64,000 nucleotides of DNA from Marsupella aquatica. Its lineage: Eukaryota; Plantae; Marchantiophyta. Numbering within the stretch: the first letter of the stretch is position 1; the number at the start of each line of letters is the position of its first letter. A program made the translations under genes and the position numbers. The stretch lies in NCBI GenBank assembly GCA_973895155.1, contig OZ316893.1, forward strand, positions 28,344,210 through 28,408,209. The letters run 5' to 3'. The notes under the pieces are model-generated. The model was not told where the DNA came from. It saw only the letters and a program-made list of their open reading frames with translations, and did no database searches. Positions 5,259 to 42,472 of the stretch are shown here, in pieces.

Positions 5259-5266
5259 CCAGAGAA

Positions 5267-19644: not shown

Positions 19645-20140
19645 CGAGGGAGTTGTGTGTTGGGGTTGGGATGGGGAGGTTGAGAGGAGTGTTTTGGGGG
19701 GTGGGGGGTTGAGGGAGTTGTGTGTTGGAGTTGGGTTGGGGAGGTTGAAAGTGTGGGGGGTTGAGGGAGTTGTGGGGTTGGGATGGGGAGGTTGAGAGGA
19801 GTGTTTTGGGAGAGGTGTGTGTTGAGTTGGCATTAGGAGGTTGAGAGTGTGGGGTGTTTAGGGAGTTGTGTGTTGGGGTTGAGATGGGGAGGTTGAGAGC
19901 AGTGTTTTGGGGGGTGGGGGGTTGAGGGAGTTGTGGGGTTGGGATGGGGAGGTTGAGAGGAGTGTTTTGGGGGAGGTGTGTGTTGAGTTGGGTTTAGGAG
20001 GTTGAGAGTGTGGGGGGTTGAGGGAGTTGTGTGTTGGGGGTGGGATGGGGAGGTTGAGAGGAGTGTTTTGGGAGAGGTGTGTGTTGAGTTGGGATTAGGA
20101 GGTTGGAGTGTGGGGTGTTTAGGGAGTTGTGTGTTGGGGT
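19645..20140 (+). repeat. G/T-rich, almost C-free minisatellite (gagggagttgtgtgttggggttgggatggggaggttgagagg); copy B 63733..64000
   Basis: Repeated variant units with dense G runs, merging into TTTAGGG repeats. Confidence 0.9.
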
Positions 20141-22610
20141 TTAGGGTTTAGGGTTTAGAGTGTCATCCCCAGTTTTCACATGTGGCATACCAGTTTTTTA
20201 AGTACTGGTATGATTATTGAATATTGGGGGTGAGTTTGACCCCCAGTTTGTTGTGTGCGCATTTTGGAGGGGCTAGGGGTGGGGGTACCCCGCAATTTTC
20301 GGGGTGCGTGTACCAGGGGGCGAGTGCCACCCTACTGTAGCTTTTGGGGGTGTAACGAGCTGGGGGTGAGGGTGGGGGAGGGGTTCCATGGGGGTTGAGG
20401 GTGAGGGTGGCCCCCAGTTTTGGGGGTGCGTGCACATGGGGGCGTGTGCAACCCTAATTGAGCATTGGGGGTGTAACGAGCTGGGGGTGAGGGTGGGGGA
20501 GGGGTTCCATGGGGGTTGAGGGTGAGGGTGGCCCCCAGTTTTGGGGGTGCGTGCACATGGGGGCGTGTGCAACCCTAATTGAGCATTGGGGGTGTAACGA
20601 GCTGGGGGTGAGGGTGGGGGAGGGGTTCCATGGGGGTTGAGGGTGAGGGTGGCCCCCAGTTTTGGGGGTGCGTGCACATGGGGGCGTGTGCAACCCTAAT
20701 TGAGCATTGGGGGTGTAACGAGCTGGGGGTGAGGGAGGGGGAGGGGTTCCATGGGGGTTGAGGGTGAGGGTGGCCCCCAGTTTTGGGGGTGCGTGCACAT
20801 GGGGGCGTGTGCAACCCTAATTGAGCATTGGGGGTGTAACGAGCTGGGGGTGAGGGTGGGGGAGGGGTTCCATGGGGGTTGAGGGTGAGGGTGGCCCCCA
20901 GTTTTGGGGGTGCGTGCACATGGGGGCGTGTGCAACCCTAATTGAGCATTGGGGGTGTAACGAGCTGGGGGTGAGGGTGGGGGAGGGGTTCCATGGGGGT
21001 TGAGGGTGAGGGTGGCCCCCAGTTTTGGGGGTGCGTGCACATGGGGGCGTGTGCAACCCTTATGTAGCATTGGGGGTGTAACGAGCTGGGGGTGAGGGTG
21101 GGGGAGGGGTTCCATGGGGGTTGAGGGTGAGGGTGGCCCCCAGTTTTGGGGGTGCGTGCATTGGGGGTGAGGATGGTCAAGATTGGGGGTGAATCACCCC
21201 CAATGTATGCATACTAGGAGTGAGTCCACGCTCCTATCGCGACGAGGTGATCACAACTAGGGGTACGAGTAGTTGGCTTTTTATGTAATTTTGACTTTTT
21301 TAAAGTATTGGTAAAACGTTTCATTTTGGTGGATTTGCGCAAATAGCACGTTTTGGAACGTTACGTGCTCGCCTAGCACGTTTTTTTGACAAGTATAGCA
21401 AAAAGAAAAAAAGGGTTAGCGTTTAGGGTTTAGGGTTTAGAGTGTCATTCCCAGTTTTCACATGTGGCATACCAGTTTTTTAAGTACTGGTATGATTATT
21501 GAATATTGGGGGTGAGTTTGACCCCCAGTTTGTTGTGTGCGCATTTTGGAGGGGCTAGGGGTGGGGGTACCCCGCAATTTTCGGGGTGCGTGTACCAGGG
21601 GGCGAGTGCCACCCTACTGTAGCTTTTGGGGGTGTAACGAGCTGGGGGTGAGGATGGGGGAGGGGTTCCATGGGGGTTGAGGGTGAGGGTGGCCCCCAGT
21701 TTTGGGGGTGCGTGCACATGGGGGCGTGTGCAACCCTAATTGAGCATTGGGGGTGTAACGAGCTGGGGGTGAGGGTGGGGGAGGGGTTCCATGGGGGTTG
21801 AGGGTGAGGGTGGCCCCCAGTTTTGGGGGTGCGTGCACATGGGGGCGTGTGCAACCCTAATTGAGCATTGGGGGTGTAACGAGCTGGGGGTGAGGGAGGG
21901 GGAGGGGTTCCATGGGGGTTGAGGGTGAGGGTGGCCCCCAGTTTTGGGGGTGCGTGCACATGGGGGCGTGTGCAACCCTAATGTAGCATTGGGGGTGTAA
22001 CGAGCTGGGGGTGAGGGTGGGGGAGGGGTTCCATGGGGGTTGAGGGTGAGGGTGGCCCCCAGTTTTGGGGGTGCGTGCATTGGGGGTGAGGATGGTCAAG
22101 ATTGGGGGTGAATCACCCCCAATGTATGCATACTAGGAGTGAGTCCACGCTCCTATCGCGACGAGGTGATCACAACTAGGGGTACGAGTAGTTGGCTTTT
22201 TATGTAATTTTGACTTTTTTAAAGTATTGGTAAAACGTTTCATTTTGGTGGATTTGCGCAAATAGCACGTTTTGGAACGTTACGTGCTCGCCTAGCACGT
22301 TTTTTTGACAAGTATAGCAAAAAGAAAAAAAGGGTTAGCGTTTAGGGTTTAGGGTTTAGAGTGTCATTCCCAGTTTTCACATGTGGCATACCAGTTTTTT
22401 AAGTACTGGTATGATTATTGAATATTGGGGGTGAGTTTGACCCCCAGTTTGTTGTGTGCGCATTTTGGAGGGGCTAGGGGTGGGGGTACCCCGCAATTTT
22501 CGGGGTGCGTGTACCAGGGGGCGAGTGCCACCCTACTGTAGCTTTTGGGGGTGTAACGAGCTGGGGGTGAGGATGGGGGAGGGGTTCCATGGGGGTTGAG
22601 GGTGAGGGTG
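20141..22610 (+). repeat. Higher-order repeat: telomere tract + unique head + n x 121-bp G-rich satellite + unique tail (units of 1282 and 919 bp; third unit interrupted by CACTA)
   Basis: Anchor agagtgtcat at 20157, 21439 and 22358. The 121-bp monomer (gtaacgagctgggggtgagggtgggggaggggttccatg...) occurs 7, 4 and 3 times. Confidence 0.95.
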
Positions 22611-24383
22611 CACTAGAAGAAAACCACCCATTCTGAGACCCTCCCCTATGTGACTTGTGCGAGACCTTCATAAATATGCGACTCCAAGTTTGTGGGTGTC
22701 ATGTTAGTTACATCATACCAACTAAGTTTTGGTGAGGTTGTGGGAAGTCATGCTTACAACTTTATCCAATGTCGCTATTGTAACACTAGTAAGTAAGAAA
22801 TAGGTAAGTTATGTTAGTTACTCCACAATAGTGCAATATGAATTGGACATCATTTTTTAAAATTCCGTCAGCATGCATACCCCATTAGCCAATTTCGGAT
22901 GCCAATCCCTAATATGCAACTCCCGGTGCAACTACATATTGCACACTCATGGTTCAATAAGTCCAAATATAATGGGTATAAATATGGGGGTTTTCATCAG
23001 AATGGTGGGTACTTTCACTTATAATGTGGATTCATACCTGACTATATTTGGCCTTGTTCTTGACCAAAGTGCACTCTCCCCACATTGAACTTTTTGCTAA
23101 GTCATTTGCATTGGTTCTTTTATGTCCAAACCAACCTGTTTGCTAAGTCACTCGATGGCTGCCCACATGTGAGGGGTACTACTTTCCCTCAGGGTCAGTG
23201 TACCTTGGAGGTTGGTTTTGCGAGAGATTTTGGGGGTACTACTTGCCCTAAGTGTTCAGGGTCAGTGTGCCGCAGAGGTTGGTTTTGCGAGGGAAATTGG
23301 GAGTCGACGACCTTCATTCCAGCTGCACTCTTCGCGAACTTCCTGCAGGGTCGTTTGAAAGTGTTTGAGCGCGACTGGACTTTAGGGTGCAAATGTGTTT
23401 AGGATTGGGCCTGCTACGAGCGTCAGTGTGGAGGTCTGCCAATCAGTTTTGAGGGGAGTCCATTGTCGCTTTTCAACCTGCTGGTGAGCTAAGCTGCTAT
23501 TGAGTTTCAAGTGAGAGCTGCCGACTTGGAGTTGAGCTCTACGAGGTGGTGCCTGAGTGTACATCTGCTCGACATACTTTTGGGAGCTCGTAGTTGGTAG
23601 GAGGGCCAAGTCATTGCACAAAAAGTTGCAGCCGTGACAGTGCAAACTAGCTAGGCGGAGGCTGGTTACTGCAAGCAAGGCGGAGGATCACTGCGAGCTA
23701 GGTGGAGGAATGCTGCGCTGCTTCACATTGTGAAGAGACATGCTGCATCGGCCCAAGTAAGGTTGCATTGACCTATCTATCTCTATGTCTATAAGGTCCT
23801 AACCGATAGTCTGCTTAGTGAGGTCCTGCTTTAAGCTACATTTGTGCGATTGATTGTGTCCTCAGAAGCTTAACCATCACATGGGGGAACGGTAGCGAGA
23901 AAGGAGGGGTGGAGCCTGATGGTCGCCAAATATTCAAACAGGGTCGCCTTGCTCGATATTGGTCTCATTGTTTTTTGCTACGGTGTGAAGGCGGCGGAGC
24001 TTCTAGTCTGACCTTTGAGTGACTTGCGGTGAGCTTCTAGTGTGGCTATTGAGGTCGACTGACCTGCATTGACCGAGCTGATCAACCTACTGAGCTGCCA
24101 TTGGGAGTTGGAGGTTGTGTTGCGTTCAATTTTGGAGTCGGGAGGCTAAATGCGATAGCTCTGTTCCGGGCTCTGTTCAGCTAATGCAGACGTTTCTGCT
24201 CAGGAGACGAGGTAAAATCTATCGACCTTCAAGCTGTTGTGAGGTTCATTGAAGAGGGAGGTTGAATGCCTAGCGCTATGAGGTGAGGAAAGAGAGTATG
24301 GCCAAGCTGCATCTTTAGGGGTTTTGCTTCAGCTTTGACCATCTTTCATCGTCGTAATCGCTGCTCTCGCCTATCGCTACATG

Positions 24384-25428
24384 GCGGATTGCTGCTCTGC
24401 CCTTTTGGCATGGGTCGCCGGCCTGCTGGATGCTATCTCCAGTTTAAAAACAAGTCATATCCTAAGTCCCGGTGTTGCAGTAGTGTCCCCGACTCTAAGA
24501 TGGAACAGAGTATCATCTTTCTTGTTTCCTGCTGCTGCTGATGTATGTCTATTCTCCCCTATTTTTGCTTACTGATTGGTCTCTCCACGCTTCTTGCTTG
24601 ACTTGCTGCTTCCTTCAATCCCCTATCGCGGACTCACCTCGTGGCTGCAAGTATAGTTGTCTAGGTGATGTATGCATTGCGTGTTTAGGGTCTAGGTGAC
24701 ATCGCTGCTGAGCAAAATTCGCGAGCTGCCTAGGTCCATTGCCGAATGCTGCTTCCTTCAATCGCCAGGTGCCTGCTGTTACAATTGCCTACTCAATCAT
24801 GCACCCAATCTCCTGGAGCTCATTCGCCTAGAGCTTCATCCGTCAGATTCAAACTATTATTGGACCTCCCTGTTGCCCGAAGTGTATACACTCCTAGCAT
24901 TGTCGTCCCAAACTGCAAAACGCTTCTCCCTGTTCTGTCCTCGTGCTTCACTATTTGTATTCAGGTGTTTTTATCAGTTTCAGAGGGGAGGTCATTGTTT
25001 CTGCAAGTTGTTGGTGAGCTAAGCTTCCGCTGTGTGTAGGTTTAGGGAGTTGCGCGTGCGAGCTAACGACTTGGACCTGAGGCCACAATCTTTTAGGGAG
25101 CTTGGAGTGGAAGCCGACAACTTGGAGCGGGACTTCAACTTGCTATTACTAGCTACCTTGGACAAAGGTGACAGTCAGTAGCGCAAAGGTGAGACTCGGT
25201 AGTTTTAGCGGATTGTTGCTCTGCCCTTTTGCCATGGGTCGCCGGCCTGCCGGATGCTACTAGCAGATTAAGAACAACTCATATCCTAAGTCCCGGTGTT
25301 GCAGTGGTGTCCCCGACCCTAAGATGCCACCCAAAATCATCTTTCTTGTTTCCTGCTGCTGCTGATCATGTATGTATGTTCTCCCCTATTTTTGCTTACT
25401 GATTGGTCTCTCCACATTTCTTGCTTGA
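24384..25428 (+). repeat. Dispersed ~220-bp direct repeat inside the CACTA (24384..~24601 and 25208..~25428)
   Basis: gcggattg(c/t)tgctctgccctttt...tcctaagtcccggtgttgcagt...ttctcccctatttttgcttactgattggtctctccac occurs twice with moderate divergence. Confidence 0.85.
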
Positions 25429-27268
25429 CATGACTATTTTGCTCCTCCCTGTATCAGAACATGCCTTGTGCCCCGTGCTCTGGCAATGGGGTGGGGGGCT
25501 GAACAGACGGCCTTAAGGTCCACTAAATTTATAGGAACCGTGCAATCGTTCAGCTGATTTTAGCAGCAAGTTCCCTTGCTTTCCCCTATTTTTGCTAAGA
25601 TCCCTCCCCACTAATCACATGCATCCTTTACTTTTCTCGGTGGCCCGTGCACCTGCCTTCCTACTTTCGTTCTTATGGACTTTCCTTAGGTTTTCTTTCA
25701 CCTGATTTTGGACTTTTTGCTCCGGTGGAATCTGTCTTGACAACTTGTGTTTGTTCTAATTGTTAATATCTCAAGAGGGTCGTCAACTAAGCTCACAGGA
25801 GTCAAAGCTAACTACAAGCTAGCAAATAGGGAGAATGCTCCCAAGTCGAGTCAGGAGGAAGTTACTAAAACTAGACCTTCAGAACTCTCGAAACTGGAAA
25901 GTGAAATTCAGCCTGAGACACGCAGCTGAAGGCCACAAGGATAACTATATGGCCACGCTGTCCCTCATTCAAGTCCAAAGTCCTCTTCAGATTGTCTGAA
26001 CTCCTATCTGAACTCCTGAACTGGATGAAGTCCTGTCTGAATGTGAAGTTCAGATTGGCAATCTCAAATGGCAAGTTCTGAACTCTTGTCTGAACTTCAT
26101 CCACCCTTCTAAACTGGGATTTGTGCTACGTGTATAGACTCCACATTGTTGCTTCTCCCTTTCGGGCCAGCCCTCCTTGTGAAACGTAGGAGCACGATCA
26201 TGGCACTTACACATAGTCTGACATTCAAAAAATGTTACTTCTCAGCAGCATGTTTCGAGTAGTTTGCCTGTGTGTTGAGCCCGGGGTTGAGCCTAATTAT
26301 TTGTTTATTGCTTTAGTAACATGCATGGCCAATTGGTTTCTCTTCATGTAAAGGCAAGTTTTTGAAACTTACTACTTGAATTGGTGGTTTGAATTTAGTT
26401 AAGTGTTGAGAAATTAGCATTCACACTAACTATTTTTCTTTTGTGATTGAGTTCTCTTTGCTATTGAATGTATTGAATAATTATTTCATCACAGAAATTT
26501 TCAGAACAAACACGGAAGCACCAGGGGGCTGAGGATTGGATATTGAGGCTGAAGACATTGAGGTAATAAACTGGGTGTGGTTCGGGTGACAATGTTAGCA
26601 ACTGGTGCTTCTTCAGGGGAACTTCCCATGTGCAAAATATCCACACATGATTGACTTTGGTTCTTGCTGTTTTTCTTTTGGTGTACTCTTCAGTTTGGTG
26701 TCACTCTATCCTTTCTTGTAGCCTCGAAATAGGAACACACCTGCTTAGTGGTCCCCAATTGCCCAATGATTTATAATGACTGTGTCTAGGCGATGTATGC
26801 ATTGCGTGTTCATTCCAGAAGAATGAATATGTACACTTTGCACAAACCTGGACAGATTTTGAATGTTATTTATCTGAGTTTCTGTTTGTGAGCTCTGACT
26901 TGGAGCCTTAACATTTGTGTTTTTGTGGGGCTGAGCAGAGTTTGTTCCGTCCAGAAGCTGCTGTACTGAAGTGATCGGCCTCCGGCTTGGAGGTGAATCT
27001 TCAATTTTTTGTGGATCCGAGTGACTTCTGTCCAGCTGAGTTTTGCTTTGTCGGGACGATTGTGTTTGGCTAAGATGCTAGATTGTGGCTTGTCTTCTTG
27101 CTTCCAGCTTGTGTATATTCAATTAATAGAAGTTGGGAACGAGGTGATAATTGAATTTCCTTATATTAAGCATCTTGACCTAGAAACTCAATACATAAAC
27201 TCCTGGAGTCCCTCGGGACATAAAATGAGCCAAATTGTTTCAAAATTGGGAACCTACACCCGCACTAC

Positions 27269-27608
27269 TCAAACAAATGTGTTGGGCTTGGTGGCCTTGT
27301 AAGTCGTCTTTAGCTTTCGCGATGGAGGTTGAATCTTGCGGTACGTCAAGGGGAACTTGATCTTTGAATCATGGAACTGCTTGGTACTTTCTCGCTTGCA
27401 CAGAGAGACAGGGACTGTCGTAGTCTTGATGATCTGGATGCAAGGGAACCGAACTCTATGACAAGAAGCCATCTCATCATACATCTGCTGTGTGGTTGTT
27501 TAATGTGGTATCACAATATTTCTTGTACATGTTGGGATAACCTGTACAACTCTGATACCTCACCCAGATACCAAAGTTCTTAATTGTGGTGGGCTTCTTT
27601 TCGAAGAT
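27269..27608 (-). pseudogene. RPL18A: Captured last exon of 60S ribosomal protein L18a (eL20), decayed
   Basis: AG acceptor, then [37 protein letters not shown]/[frameshift]/[22 protein letters not shown]...[17 protein letters not shown]...[19 protein letters not shown]. Several conserved Arg changed to Cys. Confidence 0.92.
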
Positions 27609-28603
27609 CTGGTAGACACATTATTCAGCATTTGCTAACTTCGAAACTAGAAGGGTAACACATTAAACAACAGAGAAACTCACAACATCCTCCTTTGGTC
27701 CTTCAGAGTCTGTACTTTGATTATGAAGTTTGATTGAGTTTCTGTTTACTGAAAGAATGTGACTGTGTAAGAGTTCCGTTTGGCAGTGGATTGGTTGAAG
27801 CACTTCATGCTAGTGTGTTGTCCACAGCTCTTCAACCAGCTTTCGTCTTCCTTGTCTTTCACCACTTACGATGACATCAATTCAGCTAAGACCATAGAAG
27901 GTTCCAAAGCATCTAACTTGTAAAATCGCATTCTGTTACATCAAGGACTAAGGTGTTGGGTGCCAAAGGAGACAGCACAACAAACACGCTGAAAAGACTT
28001 CAGGACTGGGTTCAACAAGGTAGTGAAGGTGCTTAGAGCCATAGTAAGTATGCATTCTGTATTTTTCTCTGTTGATGTGAGCTTGTGCATAATGGGAGTT
28101 GTAGTTGGCAAGAGTTCCAAATATGAATAGATCCAGAAGTATGTGATCATGTACTTGCTCTATAAAGTTCTGAAGATATAAGCATTTTCTGTTAGACCAG
28201 GCAACTTGGGAGTTGGTAAGTGTCACCTGCATCTGAGGGGCTACACCGGGGGCATCAGTGGAGGTTCACTTGCACAACACGACAACCAGTGAATTTTCTC
28301 TCTGCTGCAACCTGCAAGGTGAGACTTTCGGTCTTTCTGGATGAAAAAACAGGATTTTAATACGATTGATATACATGTCCATCGAGAATATGGGTTTATC
28401 ACCAAGCTCTTTGTCTTAGGAAACTCATAAACTCAGAATCAAATATGTACTATGCACGTTTCATGCTATGTGTATACTATGACCTGTAGTTGAGTGGGAA
28501 CTGATTAGTTTAGGTGGTTGCTGTTGGCGAGGCAAGTCGACCTCCTGCTCACCTTGCTCATCAAAGGACGTGAACAGAGGACATCACAACAAAAGCAACA
28601 CTT

Positions 28604-29053
28604 ATGGTGAGGACCCGCAACGCTGAACATGTGCGACTTGCACGCAAGGCAGAGATGTTGCGCCTTGAGTATGTCAGACTTGGGATCCTTCCAGCCCAGT
28701 CTGCATGGTACTTTGAGTACCCTGTTGTTTCCAGGAACAACTACAGCCGGCCTCTACTTGCTTCAGTACCCTTCCCGACATCCTTGGTATTTGTGTCTCT
28801 TGTACATGACCCGCCACAAATTAGGTGCCAAGGGTGTGTACACAGTTGCCAATATGACTGTCCTGCCTGTAGGGCTTCTGGCCCAGAATTGGATGACCGT
28901 TCTCTTGGATGCCGATTTTTGCATAGAGCACAATGTATCATTTGGAACCACTCGCCATCCTGCAGTGTGCCTGGTGATGTCACTTGTCCTGCCCTCCCAG
29001 ACCCCACCACCGGTGACTTTGGTGTCTACACATGTTTGGATCACATGCTCTAG
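28604..29053 (+). CDS. CACTA accessory ORF A, 149-aa Cys/His-rich putative metal-binding protein
   Basis: ATG-initiated ORF with basic MVRTR start, CQGC..SCQYDCPAC cluster and further C/H residues. Same strand as the other TE genes. An overlapping alternative frame (28629..29096) exists. Confidence 0.5.
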   Translation: MVRTRNAEHVRLARKAEMLRLEYVRLGILPAQSAWYFEYPVVSRNNYSRPLLASVPFPTSLVFVSLVHDPPQIRCQGCVHSCQYDCPACRASGPELDDRSLGCRFLHRAQCIIWNHSPSCSVPGDVTCPALPDPTTGDFGVYTCLDHML

Positions 29054-29668
29054 AGGACCACTTGTCACACCGCATGCACAGACCAGATACCATTGACCTA
29101 TAGCTTAACACTCTGACTTCAACACAGAGGATATTTACTTAAAATTTTGATGTATGAGCAATTTTGGGTCCAGGGTTTAGGGTCAACAGTATATAACTTA
29201 TATCCTATTATGCCTGCACTAAGCAAAATATCCTAATTTAAGAGGCTAGCAAACTCGCATAAAAGTCTCTATTGAAAGACTGCTTTCATGACTGCTTTAA
29301 CCTGGTGAACATTGCAACGTTGAATGAATTAATGGGCCATGTGATAATATGCAAAATGATTTATGCCTCACTTATTTGTCTCAGCCACTATCATAACCTA
29401 TTTAGGATGTATAAATTTCAACCCTTATGACACTGCTTCATACCAATCCTCTTCGAAGAATGCCTGTTTTACATGTCACGACTATTGTATGTGATTCAAA
29501 TGCATGAAATGTTGTTGCAGATCTCCTTTGGTGAATCATAGCCACAATTAAAATTGAGGTGTTGGTGGAGAAATTGTATTAGGGGATCAGTTTTGTGTGT
29601 GGGCTCAACATACCAAAAGTATGTGTGCTCTGCATCCTTGTGTGGCCATTCCAATTCATTGCAGTAGC

Positions 29669-29812
29669 AAATGCCTTTGTACCTTAAATGCTAAATATAT
29701 TTTACTTTCTGTGCAGTCTGCTAAATTGTAGAGTCTATCTAAATGCCTTTGTACCTTAAATGCTAAATATATATTACTTTCTGTGCAGTCTGCTAAATTG
29801 TAGAGTCTATCT
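29669..29812 (+). repeat. 72-bp tandem duplication upstream of the PHD ORF
   Basis: aaatgcctttgtaccttaaatgct...gagtctatct at 29669 and 29741. Confidence 0.95.
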
Positions 29813-29823
29813 CATGCGCAGGC

Positions 29824-30504
29824 ATGGCACGGCCTAAAATTCAAGCCAAAAAGCGTGTGACAGAGGTGAGAAACACAGGTGTACTTGGGGCAGATGCTAC
29901 TAACTTCTCTGCAAGTCAGATTTTCCAGAAGGCAGCTCATTGTTGTGCCATTTGTGACGATGGTGGGGGCCTGGTCATTTGTGAGGGCCCTTGCATGAGG
30001 CATTTCCACCTCAACCCGGAGTCTGACCTTGCTGCAGAAAACAACTGTCCAGGGGTGGGCCTCCCGTCAACACACCAGGGAGACTGGATGTGCACTGATT
30101 GTTTGGAGAAGCAGGCTAAGTGTGCACAGTGTGGGAAGTTGGGGTCCTATGAGGGCTCTGTTGATGCTGCAGCAAATGTTAGGAAATGTCCAGACCGTTT
30201 TTGTGTGAGATTTTTCTGTTTTGAGTGTTTGCCTGCTCATGCCACAGCTTGCCCACTTCATAGGTGCAAGGCATGTGGTGAGCATGATGATGACTACTGG
30301 ACTGACATAGTCCACTGTGCTAGGTGTCCCACTATGTGGCACTATCATTGCCTGAAAGATCATCAAGCAGAGGGTTATGCTTGTGACAGAGAAATCTATG
30401 ATCACTCTGCACATGGTGTTGATCGATGGATATTTTATTGTCATCGCCATGCCATTGATCCTACCTCGCGCACTCCTGTGAGAGATCACATATCTTGGCT
30501 GTGA
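29824..30504 (+). CDS. CACTA accessory ORF B, 226-aa EDM2-like composite PHD-finger protein
   Basis: CAICDDGG..CEGPCMRHFH...C..C; CAQCGKLGS...; CPLHRCKAC...CARCP.MWH..CL; C-terminal IFYCHRHAIDPTSRTPVRDHI. Parallels the EDM2 PHD region as recalled (CAICDNGG..CEG.CLRSFH...CPLHKC..C...CRRCP.SYH.KCL...IYC.EHEID....TPVRDHV). Confidence 0.9.
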   Translation: MARPKIQAKKRVTEVRNTGVLGADATNFSASQIFQKAAHCCAICDDGGGLVICEGPCMRHFHLNPESDLAAENNCPGVGLPSTHQGDWMCTDCLEKQAKCAQCGKLGSYEGSVDAAANVRKCPDRFCVRFFCFECLPAHATACPLHRCKACGEHDDDYWTDIVHCARCPTMWHYHCLKDHQAEGYACDREIYDHSAHGVDRWIFYCHRHAIDPTSRTPVRDHISWL

Positions 30505-31096
30505 AGCTGAACATTGTACATGCACAGTGCACCTGATGTGGATGTACTATTTTTTGAGATTGCAGAGATTCCAATTTTGAAAAGGAGTTGGGTAGGCGAG
30601 TTTATATAGGCAGCACTTATCTTGTGCTCTGGCGTCAGTGGCTGGGTACATGCCTATACAAACTTATCCTTACAAGCCTTCTTGGAAGTATTTAGGCTGA
30701 GTGGTCATTTTCATAAACACTTTCATCACACTGCTAAATTAAAACAGGACTTCTAAGTTGTAAGCGTATAAATTATCAGGCATGCAATTAATCAAATTGC
30801 CCTATAAGTTTGTCATTGAATGTATCCTCCTTTACAACAAAATATGTATGTGCCATGACAAGTTGGTTGCACTTCATTTCACCACGGATATGGATTTTGT
30901 AGTATATATTCAAACAATGTCCTGCATCCGTGCAGGTGCCTAGTACGTATTGTTCACATATCCCTTGTACCTATCAAAATCGGACCTGAGCACCAGTGGG
31001 CCAGATCAACTCAAAAAGCAGGAATTTTGTTGTCCTTGTATTGTCAGGTGAACCCATTCTTCCAAAATTCACTGTCATCACGTAGGGTGTGTGTAC

Positions 31097-31969
31097 ATGG
31101 AGCCTGGTAAACGTAGAAAGTGTGACCACCCAGCAGTGTTTACAGGGGTCAGAGCGATTTTGGTCCATGGCCAGCATGGGTTGACCAAAGTGCATTGGCC
31201 AACTGTACAGAAACGATTCTCTGAGCTCCATGGCACTGTAGTTCAGGACATCACTCCAGAGACTACACATGTTGTTGCAGGGACATGGCTATCAGTGATA
31301 AAGAAGTGGTCATGGTCCTACATGAATTCTGCAATTACTAAGCAAGGCCTAAAAGTAGTTGAGGCCTCTTGGATCACAGATTCCATAGCACATAAGATTG
31401 TACAGGATACTGAGCAATATGAGTTGTGGGAGGATGAAGAAGCTACTGCATCAGCTTGGGCTGAACAAGAAGTCTGGGAAGCAAAGGCACGGCTTGCTGA
31501 TCTCCAATATGGACCTGTACTCAACAAAGGACAGAGCTCTACAAGGCTGAAGAGTATGTTGGCTGAGGAGACGAAGCAACCAACCCCCATTCTGAAAGGG
31601 CTGAGCATGGTATTTGTGGAGGCGGGAATTGGAGAGGTTAAGTGCAAAGTGTACAAGTCCACAGTGCTTGACCTAGGTGGGACAGTGGAGGAGAATATAA
31701 CAGAGGACACCACTCATGTCATTACTAAGTCATATCCCAAAGCCTGCCGCAAGTTTGGGAAGGGAGACATTCGCTTTTATGTCATGTCCCATAATGTGTT
31801 TGTGGTTTCATATGCTTGGCTTGTGGAATCAGTAGCAGCTGGGAAGCGTCAAAACCCAATGGACTATGATCTTTTTGAGGCCTGGCCACGGAAGGGTCAG
31901 GATCCTTACAGAGAGGACTATGAGACAACAAGTGAGGAATGGGTCATTAGCGATTCTGAATCAGAGTGA
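31097..31969 (+). CDS. CACTA accessory ORF C, ~290-aa tandem BRCT protein (Pol lambda-like BRCT x2)
   Basis: Two internal repeats with BRCT hallmarks: F.G.....V ... (H/G)GTV..ITxxTTHV ... VVxxxW(I/L)x(D/E)S ... Y(E/D)L. First ATG at 31097. Basic KRRK start and acidic tail. Confidence 0.88.
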   Translation: MEPGKRRKCDHPAVFTGVRAILVHGQHGLTKVHWPTVQKRFSELHGTVVQDITPETTHVVAGTWLSVIKKWSWSYMNSAITKQGLKVVEASWITDSIAHKIVQDTEQYELWEDEEATASAWAEQEVWEAKARLADLQYGPVLNKGQSSTRLKSMLAEETKQPTPILKGLSMVFVEAGIGEVKCKVYKSTVLDLGGTVEENITEDTTHVITKSYPKACRKFGKGDIRFYVMSHNVFVVSYAWLVESVAAGKRQNPMDYDLFEAWPRKGQDPYREDYETTSEEWVISDSESE

Positions 31970-32402
31970 GGAGTAGTAGCATCAGTTTGGACACAAGTTT
32001 TTTTGTATAAATCAGATCATTGAAATAAATGTGATCTTTGAACTAATGTACCTTGTTATGGTTGGTGGCAGTTGGGCTTATTTTACTGTTGGCGGATTGT
32101 TGTTTCCTGCTGCCTGGGGGTGTCACTGTAAACGTACATGCAGAGGCGGTACATTTGAGGACAGCGGAGGAGGTGGTGACACCCTCCAACATTTAGAAAT
32201 TTTGTGTCATTCACTTGACAATAGGTACACTACTTGCGAACCTGTTTTTTTCTTTTGGGGTGGTTTAGGGTTTGTGAGAATTTAGTACACGTTATGTTAA
32301 CTCTTTTGGCAGATACAGTCAGGGATATATGGAACACAAATACCACCATTAGGCATCCTTGTTCACTGCTGTCCATGACTGCAGAGCTCCCAGCCTGTTA
32401 CA

Positions 32403-35400
32403 ATGCACCCTGGTCACCACCCTCCCCAGACCCAGCCCAGGGCACAGGCACTGCCTTTGCATCATCCCACAAGGATATCACGCCATGATAATAAGCTTTG
32501 GCAGCGTGAAAGGTTACGAACCAGACTTTCAGGAGCCAGTAGGATGAGATGTCCTTGTGCAATCTGCCAAGGATCCCGTACCAGGGGTCTGAATGAGGTT
32601 TGGCGGCATATCGCGGTTCATGGAAGAGATCCACGACATCGAGTTTGGAATGATCCTGCAGAGGAAGATTCTTCCGACGAGGAGTGGAGGTTAGAATTTG
32701 ATGCTGCCAATGCTGCAAGACGGGCAAGTGAGGTTCTGCCTGGTGCATTTGAAAATGTTGTAGCTGGTCTCTGTGGGTTGTCAGCTCTCCAACGGGATGG
32801 TGCTCAGGCAGCACCACGTGACGAAGGAATTCATGTGGAAGAGATGGTGAGAGACATCTTCCAAGACTTGGATGCATTTCATGATGGGCTGGACAATGAA
32901 GAGGATACGGCTGCAGATGCAAGTGTGCCCCCTGTCGAAGAGCCTCTTGATGAGTTTGAGATAGGGCAGGAAACCCCTGGGCATGATGGGATGTTTGGCT
33001 CTCCCCTGCAAATACAGGAAGGCAGGAAGTCTTTGTACCCCGGTAGCAAATGTTCTAAACTGGGATTTGTCATCATGTTCCTGAACATTTGCGGCAACCA
33101 CAATGTCCCCAACGTTTTGGTTTCTGAGTTGTTGGCATTCTTGCGAACAACTGTGCTACCAGATGGTAATATTTTGCCCAAGAACATGTACGAGGCAAAA
33201 AGATGCATATCTAATCTTGGATTGAACTATGATTCGATCCATGCCTGTCCTGATGGGCATGTTCTTTTCAGAAAGGAGTATAAAGAATCGTTGACATGCC
33301 CTAAGTGTGGGAAGCACAGGTATCGGAACTCAGGAAAGTCTATGGTTCCCGCCAAGGTACTTCGTCATTTTCCACTCATTCCCAGACTTCAGCGGATGTT
33401 CAGAAGCCGTGCCATCTCGGAGATGATGACTTGGGCAACTGACAAGAAAAGTGATGATGGGCTACAACGACATGCTGCAGATTCAAGGCAATGGAAACTC
33501 ATAGATGAGATGTATCCCGAATTTGCTGCTGAGCCGAGGAATGTCAGACTTGGGCTGTCATTGGATGGGGTAAACCCATTTGGAGACAAGAACAACAAAT
33601 TTTCATGCTGGCCTGTAACTATTTTGAATTATAACCTTCCTCCTTGGATGACTACAAAGCGATTTTTTGTTCTGATGGTCCTACTGATACCAGGGCCAGA
33701 CAGTGCTGTATCTGCCAACATAGATGTGTTTCTGGCTCCCCTAGTGGAGGAATTGAGAAAGCTTTGGGAGGAAGGAGTTCTCACATATGATGTCCTACAG
33801 AGGCTTGGGAGGTTAAACCCATTCATCCTTAGAGCCATTGTCATTCTGACTATAGCTGACTACCCAGCCCATGGGATGATATCAGGCCAAACAACAAAAG
33901 GATATTGTGCTTGTACTATCTGTGGGCGCAATGTCACCAGTGAGTACTCCAGAGCCCTGCAGAAAGTGATATACATGGGCCATCGTCGTTTTCTGAAGAC
34001 AGATCACCCTTACAGAGAAAGACAGGCACTGATTGCACACTTTGGCAATGAGATTGAGCAACGTGGACCCCCGGCACGAGTGACCAAAGAGGAGATCAGG
34101 CAGTGGGGAGCACTGAGGGATGACTATATCAAACGAGGGGGCAGGGAAGATGGAGTGAGTGATCCAATAAAGCGATATGGTGTAAAAAGACTGAGCATAT
34201 TGGACTTGGAGCTCAAGTACTGGAGGGTAAGCCTCTTGGAGTTGATGCTAATTGGGATACATGTTTTGGTTCAGAGCATGTGCATTCATTTCGAAGAGAG
34301 AGACTAAACTTGAGGCATTTCCTGACGCTTTTGCATTGCAACGATGCAGGAGTTTGAGCCAAGCAAACATAACATTGATGTTATGCACATTGAAAAGAAT
34401 ATTTGTGAGAGTCTACTCAGATTCTTGTGTGGAGAGAAAGACACTGGTTCAGTGAGATTGGATCTTGAACAGAGGGGAATGAAACCCCATCTTTGGTTGA
34501 GGCCACATGCCCACAGAGCTGATGTGCTCTTGAAGTACCAAGCGCCCTATGTTCTGACAGACACAGAGTGGGAACTATTTGTGCAGAGGTTGAGTTCTTT
34601 GAAGGTTCCTTCAAACTATGGCAGTGCTTTCAAGAAGCATATCATGACTAGAAAGCTTGGTAGTATGAAAAGCCATGACTACCATATGTTGATGCAACAG
34701 GTGTTGCCTTTATGCCTGAGGGGCCTGTTGCAGAAGCCTGTTCGTACTGTGATCATGCGACTCAGTGATGTGTTTCGTCGTATTTGTGTGAAGGTTTGGG
34801 ATGAAACACACTTCCCACAACTGACAGAAGATGTCGCTCAGGTGCTGTGTGACCTGGAGATTTATTTTCCTCCCGCATTTTTTGATGTCATGACCCACCT
34901 ACTTGTCCATGTTGTGGAAGAGCTACACCAATTTGGGCCTGTGAGTGCTCGTTGGTTGTACCCTTTGGAACGGTACATGAAGCTACTCAAAGGTCACGTG
35001 AGAACATATTACAAACCTGAAGCAAGCATGGCTAAAGGTTACATCAAGGATGAGACTCTGGGATTTCTGACCGAATACATAGCACAATATGAGCATGTGA
35101 AGACCAGGGTGTGGAATTCTGATGAGGAGGAAGGGGTGGTAGGTGAAGTACTGGAAGGGGCTGCAACCACAAAGAACCTGACCATATCTATGAGAGACTT
35201 GGCACATGACTTTGTATTGCACAACACTGTGGTGATGGAACCCTGGATACAGTGAGTGCATACATGTGCTATAATCCAGTTCATGAGCTTAAATGTTGTG
35301 TTCGTGTGGTTTTCTCCTTCAGCCTGTTCATGTTTACCCAAGCTAATGCTGTGTGGTTGTTCGTTCAGGGAGTATGAGTCATTGAAGGCGGCCCATCCCA

Positions 35401-36134
35401 CTGCAGGAACAACTTTTCCAGGTTTCATGGAGTGGATCAGAGTGGCAATTAGAGAGCATCACGAGACCCACCCAGACATGGATGCAGATGTTTACCTACT
35501 GTCTAATGCCCCTAGCCTGAAAGTGAAGACTTACAAACGGATGAGAGCATATGGGAATCACTTCCGAGTGAAGGATGGTGACAGTGCCTACAGGGTGACG
35601 AATGACTGCGGGCTCATCACTGTATTTGAGCAACAGAGCCACAATCACGACAGGGCCTGGATGGAGATGGGATATGTGGGAGAATTAGTTGACATATGGG
35701 CTCTGGACTATGGGGCGGTGTCCAGTCCTGTGATTCTTATGAAAGGTTCATGGGTGCGGCAGGATTGGCTTGGTAACAGGGCTACCATGAAGAGAGACAA
35801 CGACGGTTTCTTGCTGGCCAATTTCAGAGGGAAATTGCCCGAATGGTCTGAGCCATTTGTGTTTCCTAGTCAGGTGGAGCAAGCTTTCTTCCTGGATGTG
35901 GAAGACTCCCCAGGTTGGCGTGTAGTGTGTCATAAACAGGCCAGGCAACGCCGGATGGAAGGATCAAACCTTGAGTTTCATTTACACTCTCATAGTGCCT
36001 TTGATCGTCGGCGTTCAGACCAAGTGCCTGTAGTTCATGATAGCGGGGACTTCATTCCTGTGACAAGGGTAGATGCATTTGCTGAAGGAGGCGAATTCAG
36101 AGATGCAGATGCCAACAGTGTGCCTGTGCCATGA
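32403..36134 (+). CDS. CACTA TnpD/Tnp2 transposase, 3 exons (32403-34226, 34350-35251, 35369-36134), ~1163 aa
   Basis: RCPCAIC; IHACPDGHVLFR..CPKCG; KVLRHFPLIPRLQRMF; PRNVRLGLSLDGVNPF; NYNLPPW; DYPA; HNIDVMHIEKN; MKSHDYH; FFDVMTHLLVH; WLYPLERYM; EPFVFPSQVEQAFF. GT-AG introns join the exons in frame with no stops. Confidence 0.95.
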
Positions 36135-36290
36135 GTAATGTGAATTGTTTGCATAGACATTAGTGAGGGGAAGGATGTGTAATAAAGTAATTCTGAAGCA
36201 ACACAGATGTATGGATGGATGCCTGGTGATTGTGGTTGCATTGTGTTATACGGGGTGACCATAGATGACATGTTTTTGTGGTCCAGTAGG

Positions 36291-39200
36291 ATGGAACAGA
36301 GTGACACAGAGATGTGTGAGTATGAAAGGAAAGCTATGGAACAACGAGCATACGTGAAAGCCAAAATCGCAGAACTGGATCTGGAAAAGGATGTGGCTGA
36401 ATTGTAAGGGAACGATTCTCAACTACACCCCTCCGCTGAGTTTGTGTGACATGAATAGTTCAATGTGGCACTGAAATTGTGACTGTATTCTCATATTGGA
36501 ATGTCGCAGAGCCACAGCATTTTCAAAGAAACAAAAGGAGTACGCAAGAAGGGTGACCAGCACTATCTCTGGGCCTGTGCGTCGGAGTGACAGGTTGAGC
36601 AAGAAGGTCGTACCTACAATGGCAGAATGTGGAGATGACATTGATGCTGCACAGGTGGGTGCAGACACTAGACAAGAAGATGCAGATGATGAGTATTTTC
36701 CAGAGGAAATGGATGAGGATGGGGGTTATGAAGATGAATACATTGCAGAGCAGCCCCAAAAGAAACATGTAAGTAGTTTTCCCAACAAGGTTTTGAGTTA
36801 AAAACTCTTGTTTAGAGGTTTCATATGTTCAGTACTACACATATGTACCTTGCTTAGTTCCTGACATTGTAGTTGGTGATGTGATGCAGCGTCCTGCCAG
36901 TTCTGTTTTGCCTTCGAAGCCTGTGCATGCACCATACCAGCAGGGGGGGCTGACCTCTGATCAAGGTTGGCGAGGTGGTAGTAGTGGTAGATCCCAGGCT
37001 GGTGCCCAATACTATGGCAGGGGGCAAGCTCTAGGTTATGCCCGTGGTAGAGGCAGAGCAGGTCCAAACCCACAATCTCGTGGGTATGGACGTCCACCTC
37101 AACCGTGGGGATGTGAGTATATATCTATATGCCAGTTCTTTGTGAAGGCATGGCACTCCTGAATTTCAGACTGCATATCAATTTTTGACATTGTTTGGGA
37201 TGTATTGGATTCAGACAACATGAAATTCTGTCCACCTGCCATTGCATGCAGATTCTGCCCAACCTGATTGGGCAAATGCTAGTAATGATCAGTTCCAATG
37301 TCCACAAGGACAGACATGGGTTGAACCAGGTTGGGAGGATGGTGGTGGGTCGTGGAATGAACAAGGTTGGGAAGGTGGTGAAGGTAATTGGCAGGGATAT
37401 CAAAATTCAGTACCTACAAACGCTGGAAGAGGAGCAGGTAATGTCTGATCTTGTCAGCAATGGAAGAACTCATTATATGTGGAGTCCATTCACGTGGGGG
37501 GGACTCTGCACATGTATAATGATAGAAAATGTATGTGTGCAGGTTGGACAGTCGAACCATCGACTCAAGTATTCACTAATGCCCCTATGCAGATGCAGCA
37601 CGGAAGGGGGACAGGTATGTCGGTGAATGTTCAGTTGTTTTCCTACAGTTTGTACTTAGTTTTCAGTACATATGTTTGCACACACATACCTAGAAAGTGA
37701 CATCATCCGGCCCCTGTACTAGGCTGGACAGGTGGTCCAGGGTCGCAACAATTTCAGAGTGCAGTCCCTGCACAGGCATCTACAGGCAGAGCTACAGGTA
37801 TGTATGTTTGAAGAATTTTTCTTGAAGTGAAGCATTGAATGTTGCCGTCATCCATTCTGCTATATGTAGTTCTCAAGCATGAATGGCATTGTATTTTCCC
37901 AGGTGGCTTCAGAACCCCAGGTAGGGTGAATGAAGGGGTGGCCAATACAACGCCCAGTACTACCGAGAGCAGTGCACGAGGGGAGGTGACAAAGAAAGGG
38001 AACGTAAAGTTGAATGAGAGACAATGGGTGGATGCTGAGTGTCCTCGCAAGAACCGATGGCATGCTGATTTGAAAGCTGAAGTATTGCGTTGGTTAGATG
38101 TGAGTGTTATTAATTTTAAAAAACAGCATCCAAAAGATTGGAAGACTGTATGTGAAAATGTTGCTGCCAAATGGAATTATGTGGGCAGTGATGATGGCGT
38201 GGACATAGGTTGCCTAGAGAGTACAGCAGGTAAAATTATCAAGCAAGAGAGGTGGAGAATGCATAAGGCTTGGAAGGAAGGTGGGGAGAAGCCAGATATG
38301 CCTCCACCAGCCAGTTGTGATGATAAAGTGTGGGCAAGGTTAGTAGCTTATTTTGTAACAGATGCTTCAAAAAAGAAGAGTTCACAGATGACCGAGGCCA
38401 GGTTGAGTGTTCAGAACCCTAATCTGACAGGAAGGACCGGCACTGCACCGACAGCTAAACGTTTGGTAAGAATGAATGGCCTAGCTATGTAATTTATGCT
38501 ACACTATGTACTATTTTTTAGTGTACTGTCCCTACATGTAAACTTTGTTTTTTAGTGTACGTTCCCTGAATATTGATCGATAACTTGTGTTTGCCATGCA
38601 TGTGCAGAAAGCCCAATTGGGGCAAAGCCCTTCAAAAGAAGAGTTGAGGGCTGAAATTGTGAACACCCGGGCTCAAGAGGGTGCATCTGAATCCTCCAAG
38701 CATGTAAGTTATATGAGTTCTGATTGGTAATTGAATGACCTGCGTTGAATTTCAGGTGTACACTGTATATAACATTGATTGTGCATATATTGCCCAACAT
38801 TTCATATGGAGTGATTGAACCTATACCCCTGTGTCATGTAGGGAGGTGGATCTTCACTTACAGAGATAAGTGGTCGTTTGAAGGCTGTCGAAACATGTCT
38901 TCCAGAGATCAATGAACGTTTGAATTCATTGACTGACTTGTTCCATGTGAACTTCAAGACATTAATGGAAGCTGTTGTGTCGGTGAGAGATAAAATTGAT
39001 TCCAATTCTGCAGGAGTTCCACCATCACCACTTGAGGTGGCAAAGTCGATGCACTCTTCTGGCATGCCAACGACATGTAGGCTTGAAGGTAAGGCCTTTA
39101 CAACTGTGTGGGATATGATTATTAAATGTATAGTTTGAATTGACATTGTTTGTTGAATGTGTTATTTTCAGTAACATATATTGTGGTTGTTGTGTCCATA

Positions 39201-39998
39201 GAGAATAAGACAGGTGCTACAGAGAAGAAGTATGAGAACCTGGCAAATACTCGCTGTAATTTAGAGGCAACAAAGTTGCAGTCTGTACAAGCAACTTGTT
39301 TGACAGAGGGCAGTCAACCATGTTTGGATGAGGATGACATTGGCAAGGGAGTGGATGATATCAATGTTGGGGCAAATGAGGATATCAGCAAGCATGACAA
39401 TGATACCATTGAGCCAGATTCATGCTATGTAGATCTTGACTCCATTGCAGAGATAAATGATTTGCAGAATGTATCATTCTCAATGACAGGTGTGCCTCTT
39501 GTTGAGATAAATCCAACCAAAGAGTTAGTTGGTATGACACTCCCAGGTGATGAACCTGCTACTGTGACAGTCCTAACAGAGGAACCTACTGAGCCTAGCT
39601 TCACTACTGTGAAGAGAGGAAGCATGCGCACACGAAGCAAGTCTGCTGGTGGGAGCAGAGCCACGTCAAAGGTTTCATACAAACCTCCAAGAACAGTGCT
39701 GGCAGAAAGATCTAAGGTGGAAGTGGGGAAAGCACCTAATGCTGAGGGACAAAGTGGCTTGTTAGCTGTTGATGAGAGTGGAACACGAGTAGGATTTGCC
39801 AGAGTGCAGGTTGGTTCCACAACGTTCCATGGCAAGAGGATTCCCCCAGGTTATTCAGTAGTGTTAGTCACATTACTAGTGAAACCTAAAGCTGTCCTTC
39901 CCATTCCAAACACAAATGATGATCCTCCTCAAAAGACACTTGGAGATGCTGCAGGTTCTTTGGTATTATGGCCAAGCAAGTTCATAGAGGATCCATAA
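36291..39998 (+). CDS. CACTA TnpA-like multi-exon gene (about 10 exons; internal boundaries approximate)
   Basis: N-terminal CEYERKAMEQRAYVKAKIAELDL motif; RG/Q-rich exons; Ptta/En/Spm-like exon (~37903-38465: WARLVAYF..SSQMTEAR...TGRTG); C-terminal Tnp1-like HGKRIPPGYSVV...LPIP...TLGDAAGSLVLWP. GT-AG boundaries between ORF pieces. Confidence 0.8.
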
Positions 39999-40494
39999 CA
40001 ATGTCATGCCATTATTTGTTTGTAGTGTGAGTCATGTTATGTAGATTTTAGATGTCAAGAAACAGTACAAGAATCATGTCCTCTTGGAGATTCATAGTAT
40101 CATGCATGTGCTTTCAGTTATCTCATCCTACAGTCATCAATTATGAGTTCCTGTTTTGTCTAAATTACATTGATCACATTGTAAACTATTCCATTGGAAT
40201 TCAAATGATCTTCATTTTTTAGCAAGATTGTGATTGTGTTTAATTCTTATGAATGTTTTATGTAGGATCTGCTTATATGATGCTTTGTTTCATGTGGATG
40301 TCATTCATGCTATGTTCATTTCTTGTATTCAATGTGTTATATTTCTAAAGTTAGAACATCAGGTTTCTATGTATTGTAATGTCGAGTGCTCTCTCTTCTT
40401 ATGAACTGTCCCTCTGTGTTCATTAGTCATGGTTATAACTTGCATGTGAACCTTATTAGTTATAAACATGAGTATATAGAGTCCCAAATGGTTC

Positions 40495-40835
40495 TGTTGT
40501 GTGACGCGGGCCAGGGTCTCCATTGGTCTCTCCTGTGACACTAAATAGTCACACGCTAGTCGTTGTTGAATGCGGGTAAGTCATGTATGTGACTTACGAT
40601 GTGACTCGCTGAAGTCATATTGCAGTCACGTCGAAACAAGGCTAGACTCCACAATAAAGTCACAGATCAGTCACAAATGGGTATCAAGCAAGTTGCAAAG
40701 CCCAGTATCAATAGTGACTTCCATTTTTTGGTCTCAACTTTTGCAACTCCAAGGGTCACAGCGTGGGTCAAGTCACGTTGAGTCACAATGAAGTCACATG
40801 AGCCAAAATGAGTCATATATTGCGGTCTCAGTTCA
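40495..40835. repeat. CACTA 3' subterminal repeats (gtcac/gtgac/agtcaca in both orientations)
   Basis: More than a dozen short motifs next to the right TIR, with a similar weaker cluster at 22640-22760. Confidence 0.75.
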
Positions 40836-40853
40836 CCTCGGATTCTTCTAGTG

Positions 40854-41337
40854 GTGGCCCCCAGTTTTGGGGGTGCGTGCACATGGGGGCGTGTGCAACC
40901 CTAATTGAGCATTGGGGGTGTAACGAGCTGGGGGTGAGGGAGGGGGAGGGGTTCCATGGGGGTTGAGGGTGAGGGTGGCCCCCAGTTTTGGGGGTGCGTG
41001 CACATGGGGGCGTGTGCAACCCTAATGTAGCATTGGGGGTGTAACGAGCTGGGGGTGAGGGTGGGGGAGGGGTTCCATGGGGGTTGAGGGTGAGGGTGGC
41101 CCCCAGTTTTGGGGGTGCGTGCATTGGGGGTGAGGATGGTCAAGATTGGGGGTGAATCACCCCCAATGTATGCATACTAGGAGTGAGTCCACGCTCCTAT
41201 CGCGACGAGGTGATCACAACTAGGGGTACGAGTAGTTGGCTTTTTATGTAATTTTGACTTTTTTAAAGTATTGGTAAAACGTTTCATTTTGGTGGATTTG
41301 CGCAAATAGCACGTTTTGGAACGTTACGTGCTCGCCT
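40854..41337 (+). repeat. Remainder of third higher-order repeat unit, right of the CACTA insertion
   Basis: Resumes the 121-bp monomer exactly where it was interrupted at 22610. Confidence 0.95.
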
Positions 41338-42472
41338 GTATATATCTTCTCTGCACAGCGCGTGCAATGAGGCCGGTCTTCAGGCCATTTCAGGGTATTT
41401 AGGGACCGCGGTGCATGGTCTCCTACATGCAGTGCACGGTCTCAACATTTCATTATTTGGACTCCCACAACATTATTATCAAAACCTTTAAACTCCACTA
41501 GTATTGATTAGGGTGACTTACGGGTGGTTGCCGTAGGCTCCCATAACATTATTTTTTAAGTGTTCATACACCACTAGCATTCATTGTGACTCACTTGTAG
41601 TCCCGCACTCCCATAACATTTCCAATAAATGTCTTTTGCAGCTATAACATTCATGTTGAAACCATTGGACTCCGTTAGCATCAAAAGTGTCACCATTCAA
41701 TTTGGGTTCGTGAGAAATACAAAGGAAACAAAGCTTGGTCAATGCTTCTAGAATTCTTGTACCAGCCTTCAATCTGGTTCCTTAATGTGCTCGTCACCTT
41801 CAAATTCCCTTCTGCATTATTGTTGGGTCGGTATTTTGGTCGGGAAGCATTGGCCTTCGAGAATTCCTGTCGCTGGCCTTCAATCTGGTCCTGACTGTGC
41901 TCGCCACCTCCAAATTCCCTTCAATCTGCATCTTGAATCTTGCATCGCTTGGATGGCGTACTGACATCGTCAATAATTGCAGCAAGTGATGGATTAGAGT
42001 CATTCACTGTCGGATGCAGTCTTCGAGCGAAGGCATTTCCGAATGGTTGCATTTTTTATGCTTACTGGTGGCAGTGGCGTGGCATGGTTTCAGGCTGAGT
42101 GTGCAGTGATGGAGCTTCTCTTCTGTACAACATCCATGGTTGCGGTATCCATGCCTTGCTACTCACCTCCATCTGTGTTGCAACTCCATTCAGACACTCC
42201 TAGGACCCAAATCGCCTTCACTGTCCAACCCACCATACAACACTCTTATGTAAAGGCTGTGTCTCACATGCGATACATGGTATGTCTCCAAGTTTCAGCA
42301 TATGGACTCCCACAACATTTCCGGTTAAAGTGGAGGCTCCCATAACATTTCCGGTTAAACCGTAGACTCCCATAGCTTTCATGTTGAAACCTTTAAACTC
42401 CGTTAGCATCAAATGTGTCACCATTCAATTTTGGACGTGGGAAATGAGATACAAAATTTTGGACGTGGGAAA

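Follow-up and report, generated by a model that had tools for sequence, protein, structure and literature searches.

Autonomous CACTA (En/Spm) transposons are, in the standard definition, elements with two open reading frames (ORFs; PMC4158355). They have terminal inverted repeats (TIRs) starting with CACTA, a target-site duplication (TSD) of 3 bp, TnpD and TnpA arranged head to tail, and a subterminal motif cluster. We analysed a window of 64,000 nucleotides from the liverwort Marsupella aquatica (contig OZ316893.1, positions 28,344,210 to 28,408,209; coordinates below are those of the window) that contains an 18,243-bp element sharing these features, with a TnpA-like gene in the place of TnpA. 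It differs from the described autonomous elements in carrying three additional intronless genes before TnpD: ORF1, encoding a Cys/His-rich protein, ORF2, encoding a cluster of PHD-type fingers, and ORF3, encoding a pair of BRCT domains. These ORFs are very probably genes maintained by the element and not neutral cargo. We assign a probability of about 0.5 to the further reading that they are long-term accessory genes whose non-catalytic products serve as adaptors to chromatin and break-repair proteins of the host.

The capture of accessory genes by DNA transposons is already known. VANC and KIU/ULP1 of Mutator-like elements are described as separate accessory genes, partly host-derived, that are kept by a plant DNA transposon (PMC13317346; PMC10398659). 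The three ORFs resemble them in being retained by a plant DNA transposon, but they belong to another superfamily and encode other domains; moreover, VANC is a sequence-specific DNA binder with demonstrated anti-silencing activity, whereas any such role of ORF1-3 would be hypothetical. In the CACTA clade itself, fungal EnSpm, ESTA and Plavaka elements are reported to have retained an epigenetic gene of host type, TET/JBP, beside the transposase (PMC12730594). There the accessory product is an enzyme and the hosts are fungi, while here we predict non-catalytic reader or adaptor domains in a land plant. A literature search, mostly of titles and the beginnings of abstracts, returned no CACTA element with a PHD plus BRCT gene set; Repbase and the supplements of the Spm preprint cited next may contain such ORFs. 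The words "PHD" and "BRCT" occur zero times in the main texts of an atlas of Arabidopsis transposable-element products (PMC13547354), of the fungal TET/JBP paper (PMC12730594) and of a preprint modelling 962 Repbase Spm proteins (10.64898/2026.08.24.746577), the last of which mentions "other" accessory domains without naming them. What appears new is thus the domain set, of which we found no report in print.

A complete CACTA element encloses the three ORFs

The window was scanned for CACT-type inverted ends accompanied by a 3-bp duplication, which yielded two candidate pairs, one of which (22611-40853, + strand) encloses the cassette of ORF1-3. The 11-bp TIRs of this pair (22611-22621 and 40843-40853) start with CACTA and are identical at 11 of 11 bases, and the TSD, GTG, is present at both flanks (22608-22610 and 40854-40856), so that the left and right ends with their duplications span 22608-22621 and 40843-40856, respectively. 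The insertion site is fixed by the empty site, the joined flanks with a single GTG, of which 13 copies lie in the 121-bp tandem array around the element. With its TIRs, TSD and TnpD-type DDE transposase, the element is a true and complete CACTA. On the + strand its order is about 6 kb of 5′ sequence, ORF1, ORF2, ORF3, TnpD and a TnpA-like gene. We also considered whether the cassette came from a nested element; no inverted or long direct repeats inside the element flank it.

ORF1-3 are probably maintained genes of the element

All three ORFs are open, ATG-initiated, uninterrupted and intronless on the + strand, and ORF3 ends 433 bp before the ATG of TnpD at 32403. To gauge chance ORF length, the longest ATG-initiated ORF was recorded in 500 base shuffles of 26500-32400. 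The 149 amino acids (aa) of ORF1 were attained in nine shuffles, and the 226 and 290 aa of ORF2 and ORF3 in none; by length alone ORF1 is marginal. We accepted it as a gene despite this because its homologues confirm the frame starting at 28604. A 155-aa frame overlaps it from 28629; we discarded this one, since it is the frame at 28604 that the homologues preserve.

Homologues of ORF1-3 were found among Logan proteins, where they stand alone, are similar in length and cover 97-100% of each ORF. For ORF1 there were two full-length homologues among 23 candidates scored (56% and 54% identity), for ORF2 five among 123 (82, 75, 53, 37 and 38%), and for ORF3 two full-length clusters among 1261 (60 and 54%). 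The collection consisted of called ORFs at 0.55-1.75 times the query length, in which broken copies are invisible. In simulations of neutral decay by substitutions only, none of 1500 runs left ORF3 open at about 60% identity, and at about 45% identity ORF2 and ORF1 stayed open in 3 and 28 of 1500, respectively; the comparison favours conservation by design, since only open frames of similar length are visible.

The stretch 28000-36200 is present, wholly or in part, in nine of the 11 listed sequencing runs (six organism labels, seven studies), five of which contain half or more of its words. None of the listed runs is registered as RNA, which carries no information about expression. Copies were compared in four runs, X1, X2, X5 and X6, with three organism labels, one of them possibly the window's own source; runs X7-X9 (shares 0.21, 0.12 and 0.11) were left out. 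In each of these, 30 of 30 bins of 22400-41200 were covered, by contigs ranging from below 90% to above 99% identity; the element therefore belongs to a family and is not a single locus. Variants were read from the best-supported 12 of 180 indels and the best-supported 40 of 1607 substitutions. Eight of these 12 indels lie in 28400-32402, none of them within the ORFs, which occupy 50% of that span (p 0.004). Fourteen of these 40 substitutions lie in ORFs of the element and nine of the 14 are synonymous, where 22-28% would be expected (p 0.001-0.005); nine of the 40, beyond position 39998, are outside all ORFs and were left out of the synonymous-site computation. Both of the listed substitutions inside the cassette are synonymous. 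One X6 contig from a diverged copy, at about 95% identity (43 differences in 922 bases), connects the greater part of ORF3 with the opening 67 bases of TnpD. Summed contig depth over ORF1-ORF2 exceeded that over TnpD, and the 5′ region had a lower depth; depth cannot rank genes, and we drew no inference from it.

The observed/expected CpG ratio is 0.40 in ORF1, 0.25 in ORF2 and 0.23 in ORF3, compared with 0.38 in TnpD and 0.28 in TnpA, and with 0.51 in a captured RPL18a piece in the same element and 0.72 in a neighbouring SMC2 copy. We read this transposon-like depletion as a sign of long residence in a methylated element. Full-length homologues, conserved Cys/His ligands or BRCT cores, the avoidance of the ORFs by indels and CpG depletion together make it most likely that ORF1-3 are maintained genes. 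A preliminary description of this DNA had proposed just that, from three open, intronless ORFs on the TnpD strand directly upstream of it and inside matched TIRs and TSD, and both this layout and the idea of maintained genes held up, the latter down to homologues at 37-56% identity. It had also raised disruption in sister copies as a point against maintenance; among the 12 indels listed from the four runs, none lies in ORF1-3.

The same description noted a captured and frameshifted RPL18a exon, and this too was borne out. The fragment, coding for RPL18a (eL20), lies on the - strand at about 27269-27620 (upper boundary approximate), has a Pfam match and a best PDB match at E 1e-36, and changes reading frame within its length. 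It is typical decayed Pack-CACTA cargo, and it invites the explanation that ORF1-3 are cargo as well, either gene pieces still open by recency or luck, or small genes selected in the host, carried by a recently amplified family. Capture of gene fragments by CACTA elements is indeed reported (PMC13317346). Unlike such cargo, ORF1-3 are whole and conserved and sit in an element with an intact TnpD; their CpG depletion is that of a transposon, and indels avoid them. Their frames are also intronless, whereas the EDM2 paralogue ELP1 is described with 17 introns (PMC3632883). On the other side, the distant homologues, known as proteins, may be small host genes. With the ORF2 phylogeny described below, which also speaks against it, we consider cargo the least likely of the explanations weighed here.

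ORF2 encodes a stand-alone PHD cluster of the EDM2 type

ORF2 (29824-30504, + strand, 226 aa) is a stand-alone EDM2/NSD-type cluster of three PHD-type fingers. Three NSD-type PHD models of Pfam matched it at E 5e-5 to 4e-3, all below the curated cut-off, while in the PDB it matched NSD2/3 structures (E 1e-10), and its top match in the Atlas was a Streptophyta NSD-type PHD cluster (score 0.92). Across ORF2 and its homologues, 24 of 38 Cys/His sites are invariant, compared with 27 of the 188 sites with other residues (Fisher p 2e-9).

A metagenome scan returned 11 loci, none of which matches ORF1, ORF3, TnpD or TnpA. One of them, L001, encodes a grass-like protein of 1305 aa with an RFD, a PHD cluster and a methyltransferase-like region, which we take from this layout to be EDM2. 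ORF2 aligns with exactly the PHD cluster of L001, at 31% identity and through the C-terminal TPxRDHI-type motif, and it has the NSD-type order of three fingers with a C-terminal half finger and the terminal motif, as in EDM2/ELP1. It differs from these proteins in having neither an RFD nor a methyltransferase-like domain, the 226-aa frame stopping directly after the PHD cluster, in being free of introns and in its shorter second finger. Six other loci, L002-L007, are contigs of transcript-like character whose products are short EDM2-type PHD proteins that stand alone, likewise without RFD or methyltransferase-like domains.

For the alignment and tree we used six ORF2-type proteins and three EDM2-type proteins (L001, L003 and L004) and left out the eight other loci. 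The six split from the three grass EDM2-type proteins with support 1.0 in this unrooted tree of nine sequences, at 27-32% identity to grass EDM2; L003 and L004 sit on the branch separate from ORF2. All six share three changes relative to EDM2: the loss of an acidic cluster before Cys1, described below, and, in finger 2, a deletion of about 21 aa and a His-to-Cys swap of a ligand. The grass transcripts L002-L007 can be cited in favour of cargo, as short EDM2-type PHD proteins that exist outside the ORF2 family, whereas the separation and low identity of that family argue against it.

ORF3 encodes a BRCT pair and ORF1 a predicted zinc protein

ORF3 (31097-31969, + strand, 290 aa) comprises two BRCT domains, at about aa 12-112 and 163-262, along with an N-terminal basic cluster (KRRK) and an acidic tail. 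Both BRCT stretches were found by Pfam above the cut-off (E 2e-13), and between themselves the repeats share 24% identity (E 5e-12). The linker between them is roughly 50 aa long and its second half is the most variable part of the protein; a second X6 contig matches to the left and right of the linker and leaves the linker (aa 126-164) unmatched. In phosphopeptide-binding tandem BRCT domains of the BRCA1 type, the first repeat carries a pocket of Ser/Thr-Gly and Lys, and the linker is short. The ORF3 residue aligned to the phospho-binding Ser of BRCA1 is His, Phe or Tyr in three of three proteins, in a low-confidence alignment. ORF3 thus appears to be an internally duplicated BRCT with a long linker and is not clearly a phosphopeptide reader. 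Sequence matches in Pfam and the PDB give it the BRCT fold, as in the paired domains of BRCA1/Rad4 and LIG4 and the single one of X-family Pol lambda, and it differs from them in its long linker, the lack of a catalytic domain and a phospho-pocket that is not evident. Its structural model was poor (predicted local distance difference test, pLDDT, 36.5); the top Foldseek matches were entries of the non-homologous end-joining (NHEJ) complex (9cq3_F, LIG4) at a root-mean-square deviation of about 23 Å and were not used as evidence.

ORF1 (28604-29053, + strand, 149 aa) is Cys/His-rich. Between it and its two homologues 10 of 16 Cys/His sites are invariant, with the pattern C-x-H-x-C-x3-C-x2-C plus further Cys/His, which suggests that the protein binds zinc. 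It gave no usable Pfam family and no Atlas match. A fold search with its model (pLDDT 60) gave a best VIA Z of 4.0 and none of at least 5 among 48,161 chains, a result that does not prove a novel fold.

A possible role at the interface with host chromatin and repair

In the adaptor mechanism that we propose, ORF2 would be descended from a host gene of the EDM2 type, of which it kept the PHD cluster and lost the flanking domains, and on the methylated element it would tether to, or compete for, EDM2-type chromatin sites and partners, thereby aiding full-length transcription of the downstream TnpD and TnpA. EDM2 is described as an H3K9me2 chromatin binder and suppressor of proximal polyadenylation (PMC7529245) and as affecting how some transposons are silenced, in both directions (PMC3632883), and because of these roles a stripped PHD cluster could serve as a tether or decoy at chromatin. 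ORF3, as an internally duplicated BRCT of end-joining type, would engage host NHEJ factors at excision or insertion breaks, and ORF1 would be a small zinc protein of the same module. The three products would be made from separate or alternatively spliced transcripts with acceptors in the AT-rich spacers. Pyrimidine-rich candidate splice acceptors lie upstream of each ORF, and a 72-bp tandem duplication (29669-29812, + strand) doubles the one before ORF2; En/Spm elements of Arabidopsis are reported to use alternative splicing as well as separate head-to-tail genes (PMC13547354).

Several observations weigh against this mechanism. The acidic cluster before Cys1 of the first PHD finger, on which H3K4me0-specific PHD fingers are reported to rely (PMC3241642), is retained in AIRE, L001, L003 and L004 and is gone in six of six ORF2 family members, which makes canonical H3K4me0 reading by ORF2 doubtful; histone-tail reading may have been lost or changed. 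For ORF3, sequence searches of the PDB place BRCA1, Rtt107 and Rad4 above LIG4, with no Pol X BRCT listed. The repeats may each resemble the N-terminal BRCT of plant Pol lambda. On the side of the mechanism, that BRCT is described as binding LIG4/XRCC4, and the enzyme as linked to repair at excision sites of transposable elements (PMC4444747; PMC10787897). Anti-silencing, on the other hand, could come from TnpA alone, as Spm TnpA is itself reported to be a sequence-specific anti-silencing factor (preprint 10.64898/2026.08.24.746577); this weakens the need for a cassette in that job and leaves anti-silencing as one option for it. As to maintenance, the homologue collection shows open frames only and is biased towards conservation. 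The nine divergent homologues come as Logan proteins; a search of viral-contig and genome-contig collections for their genomic surroundings found none, and their residence in CACTA elements is presumptive. The cassette holds just two of the listed substitutions, none of them in ORF3, too few for a codon-level ratio of nonsynonymous to synonymous change (dN/dS).

The labels of the preliminary description fared accordingly. "EDM2-like" is apt for ORF2, which has the three-finger order and C-terminal motif in common with EDM2. Of "histone-mark reader" the identity of the PHD cluster stands and the canonical reading of H3K4me0 is doubtful. "Tandem BRCT" is right as to two BRCT domains, although the linker and pocket are not those of a clear phosphopeptide reader.

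The loss of the acidic cluster bears on two further explanations, in both of which the ORFs are maintained. ORF2 might be an integration-targeting subunit that reads chromatin state and guides a TnpD/TnpA transpososome, with ORF3 and ORF1 helping to complete insertion. The conservation of ORF1-3 fits this equally well, and the present copy is located in a tandem-repeat array. A parallel exists in RAG2, whose PHD finger guides RAG1. RAG1 and EnSpm transposases are placed in one clade (PMC12730594). A single insertion site, however, cannot reveal a preference, ORF2 is without the canonical acidic cluster for the H3 tail, and its binding to TnpD or TnpA would be an assumption; we regard integration targeting as unlikely. 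Alternatively, the domains may have been repurposed away from host partners, for example for DNA binding or as a scaffold in the element's own transpososome. This would be consistent with the changes relative to EDM2 in all six ORF2 family members (the lost acidic cluster, the deletion in finger 2 and the ligand swap) and with ORF3 repeats that fit no named BRCT subtype well. Against it, the EDM2-type finger order and C-terminal motif have persisted over a long divergence, and BRCT domains are mostly protein-interaction modules in repair; we think repurposing somewhat less probable still.

The adaptor mechanism therefore remains our best reading, ahead of integration targeting, then repurposed domains, then cargo. 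Its most specific form is a three-gene host-interface module of a plant CACTA lineage, in which a stripped EDM2 reader would hijack or jam the machinery for heterochromatin read-through, a BRCT pair would steer repair of excision breaks as a transposon-encoded DNA-repair adaptor, and ORF1 would represent a new zinc-protein family. We offer this version tentatively, as a conjecture with the odds clearly against it.

Transposase genes and other features of the window

TnpD (32403-36134, + strand) is predicted to be spliced from three exons (32403-34226, 34350-35251 and 35369-36134) with GT-AG introns, giving a product of 1163 aa without an internal stop. Pfam finds Transposase_21 (E 2e-70) and DUF4218 (E 5e-28), and more weakly Transpos_assoc and DUF4216. 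The TnpA-like gene (36619-39998, + strand) has about nine predicted exons with approximate splice sites; its multi-exon models remain open over about 770-800 aa, and its match to Transposase_24 (E 1.5e-4) is below the curated cut-off. The motif AGTCAC occurs ten times in 40450-40853 and once in the first 400 bp of the element; its 3′ subterminal cluster at 40500-40800 (neither strand assigned) is a candidate for TnpA-binding repeats, by analogy with Spm. Among 75 further frames within the element, a Pfam scan matched only RPL18a. The 5′ region holds a 225-bp internal duplication (24384-24605 and 25208-25432, 88% identity), and several deletions occur there among copies.

Around the element, window positions 1-19912 and 43837-64000 form a direct duplication (period about 43.8 kb, 99.8% identity). 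The duplicated unit includes an SMC2-like condensin gene, decayed by stops and frameshifts, at 11088-16740, and the copy of this gene begins at about 54925. At one place where the two units differ there is a perfect inverted match of 35 bp (13106-13140 and 57036-57070). The tandem array into one unit of which the CACTA element inserted is G-rich, with TTTAGGG tracts, and is adjoined by 151-bp repeats (19000-22610 and 40854-41470). The TTTAGGG tracts and the RPL18a matches both point to a land plant as host. A short frame at 9780-10013 matches Pfam DNA_gyraseB (E 1e-8) and is probably a scrap of topoisomerase II, and two arrays of 18-bp units lie at 1536-2059 and 6017-6124.

Significance

Cut-and-paste elements need the host both for read-through of their own silenced chromatin and for repair of the breaks that they make, two processes usually thought to be beyond their control. 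If ORF2 and ORF3 act as predicted, they would give this family small single-domain handles on both, and would provide a case, open to experiment, in which a transposon steers how breaks are repaired, together with a new family of zinc proteins in ORF1. Even without such functions, the cassette extends what plant CACTA elements carry as accessory genes beyond TnpA.

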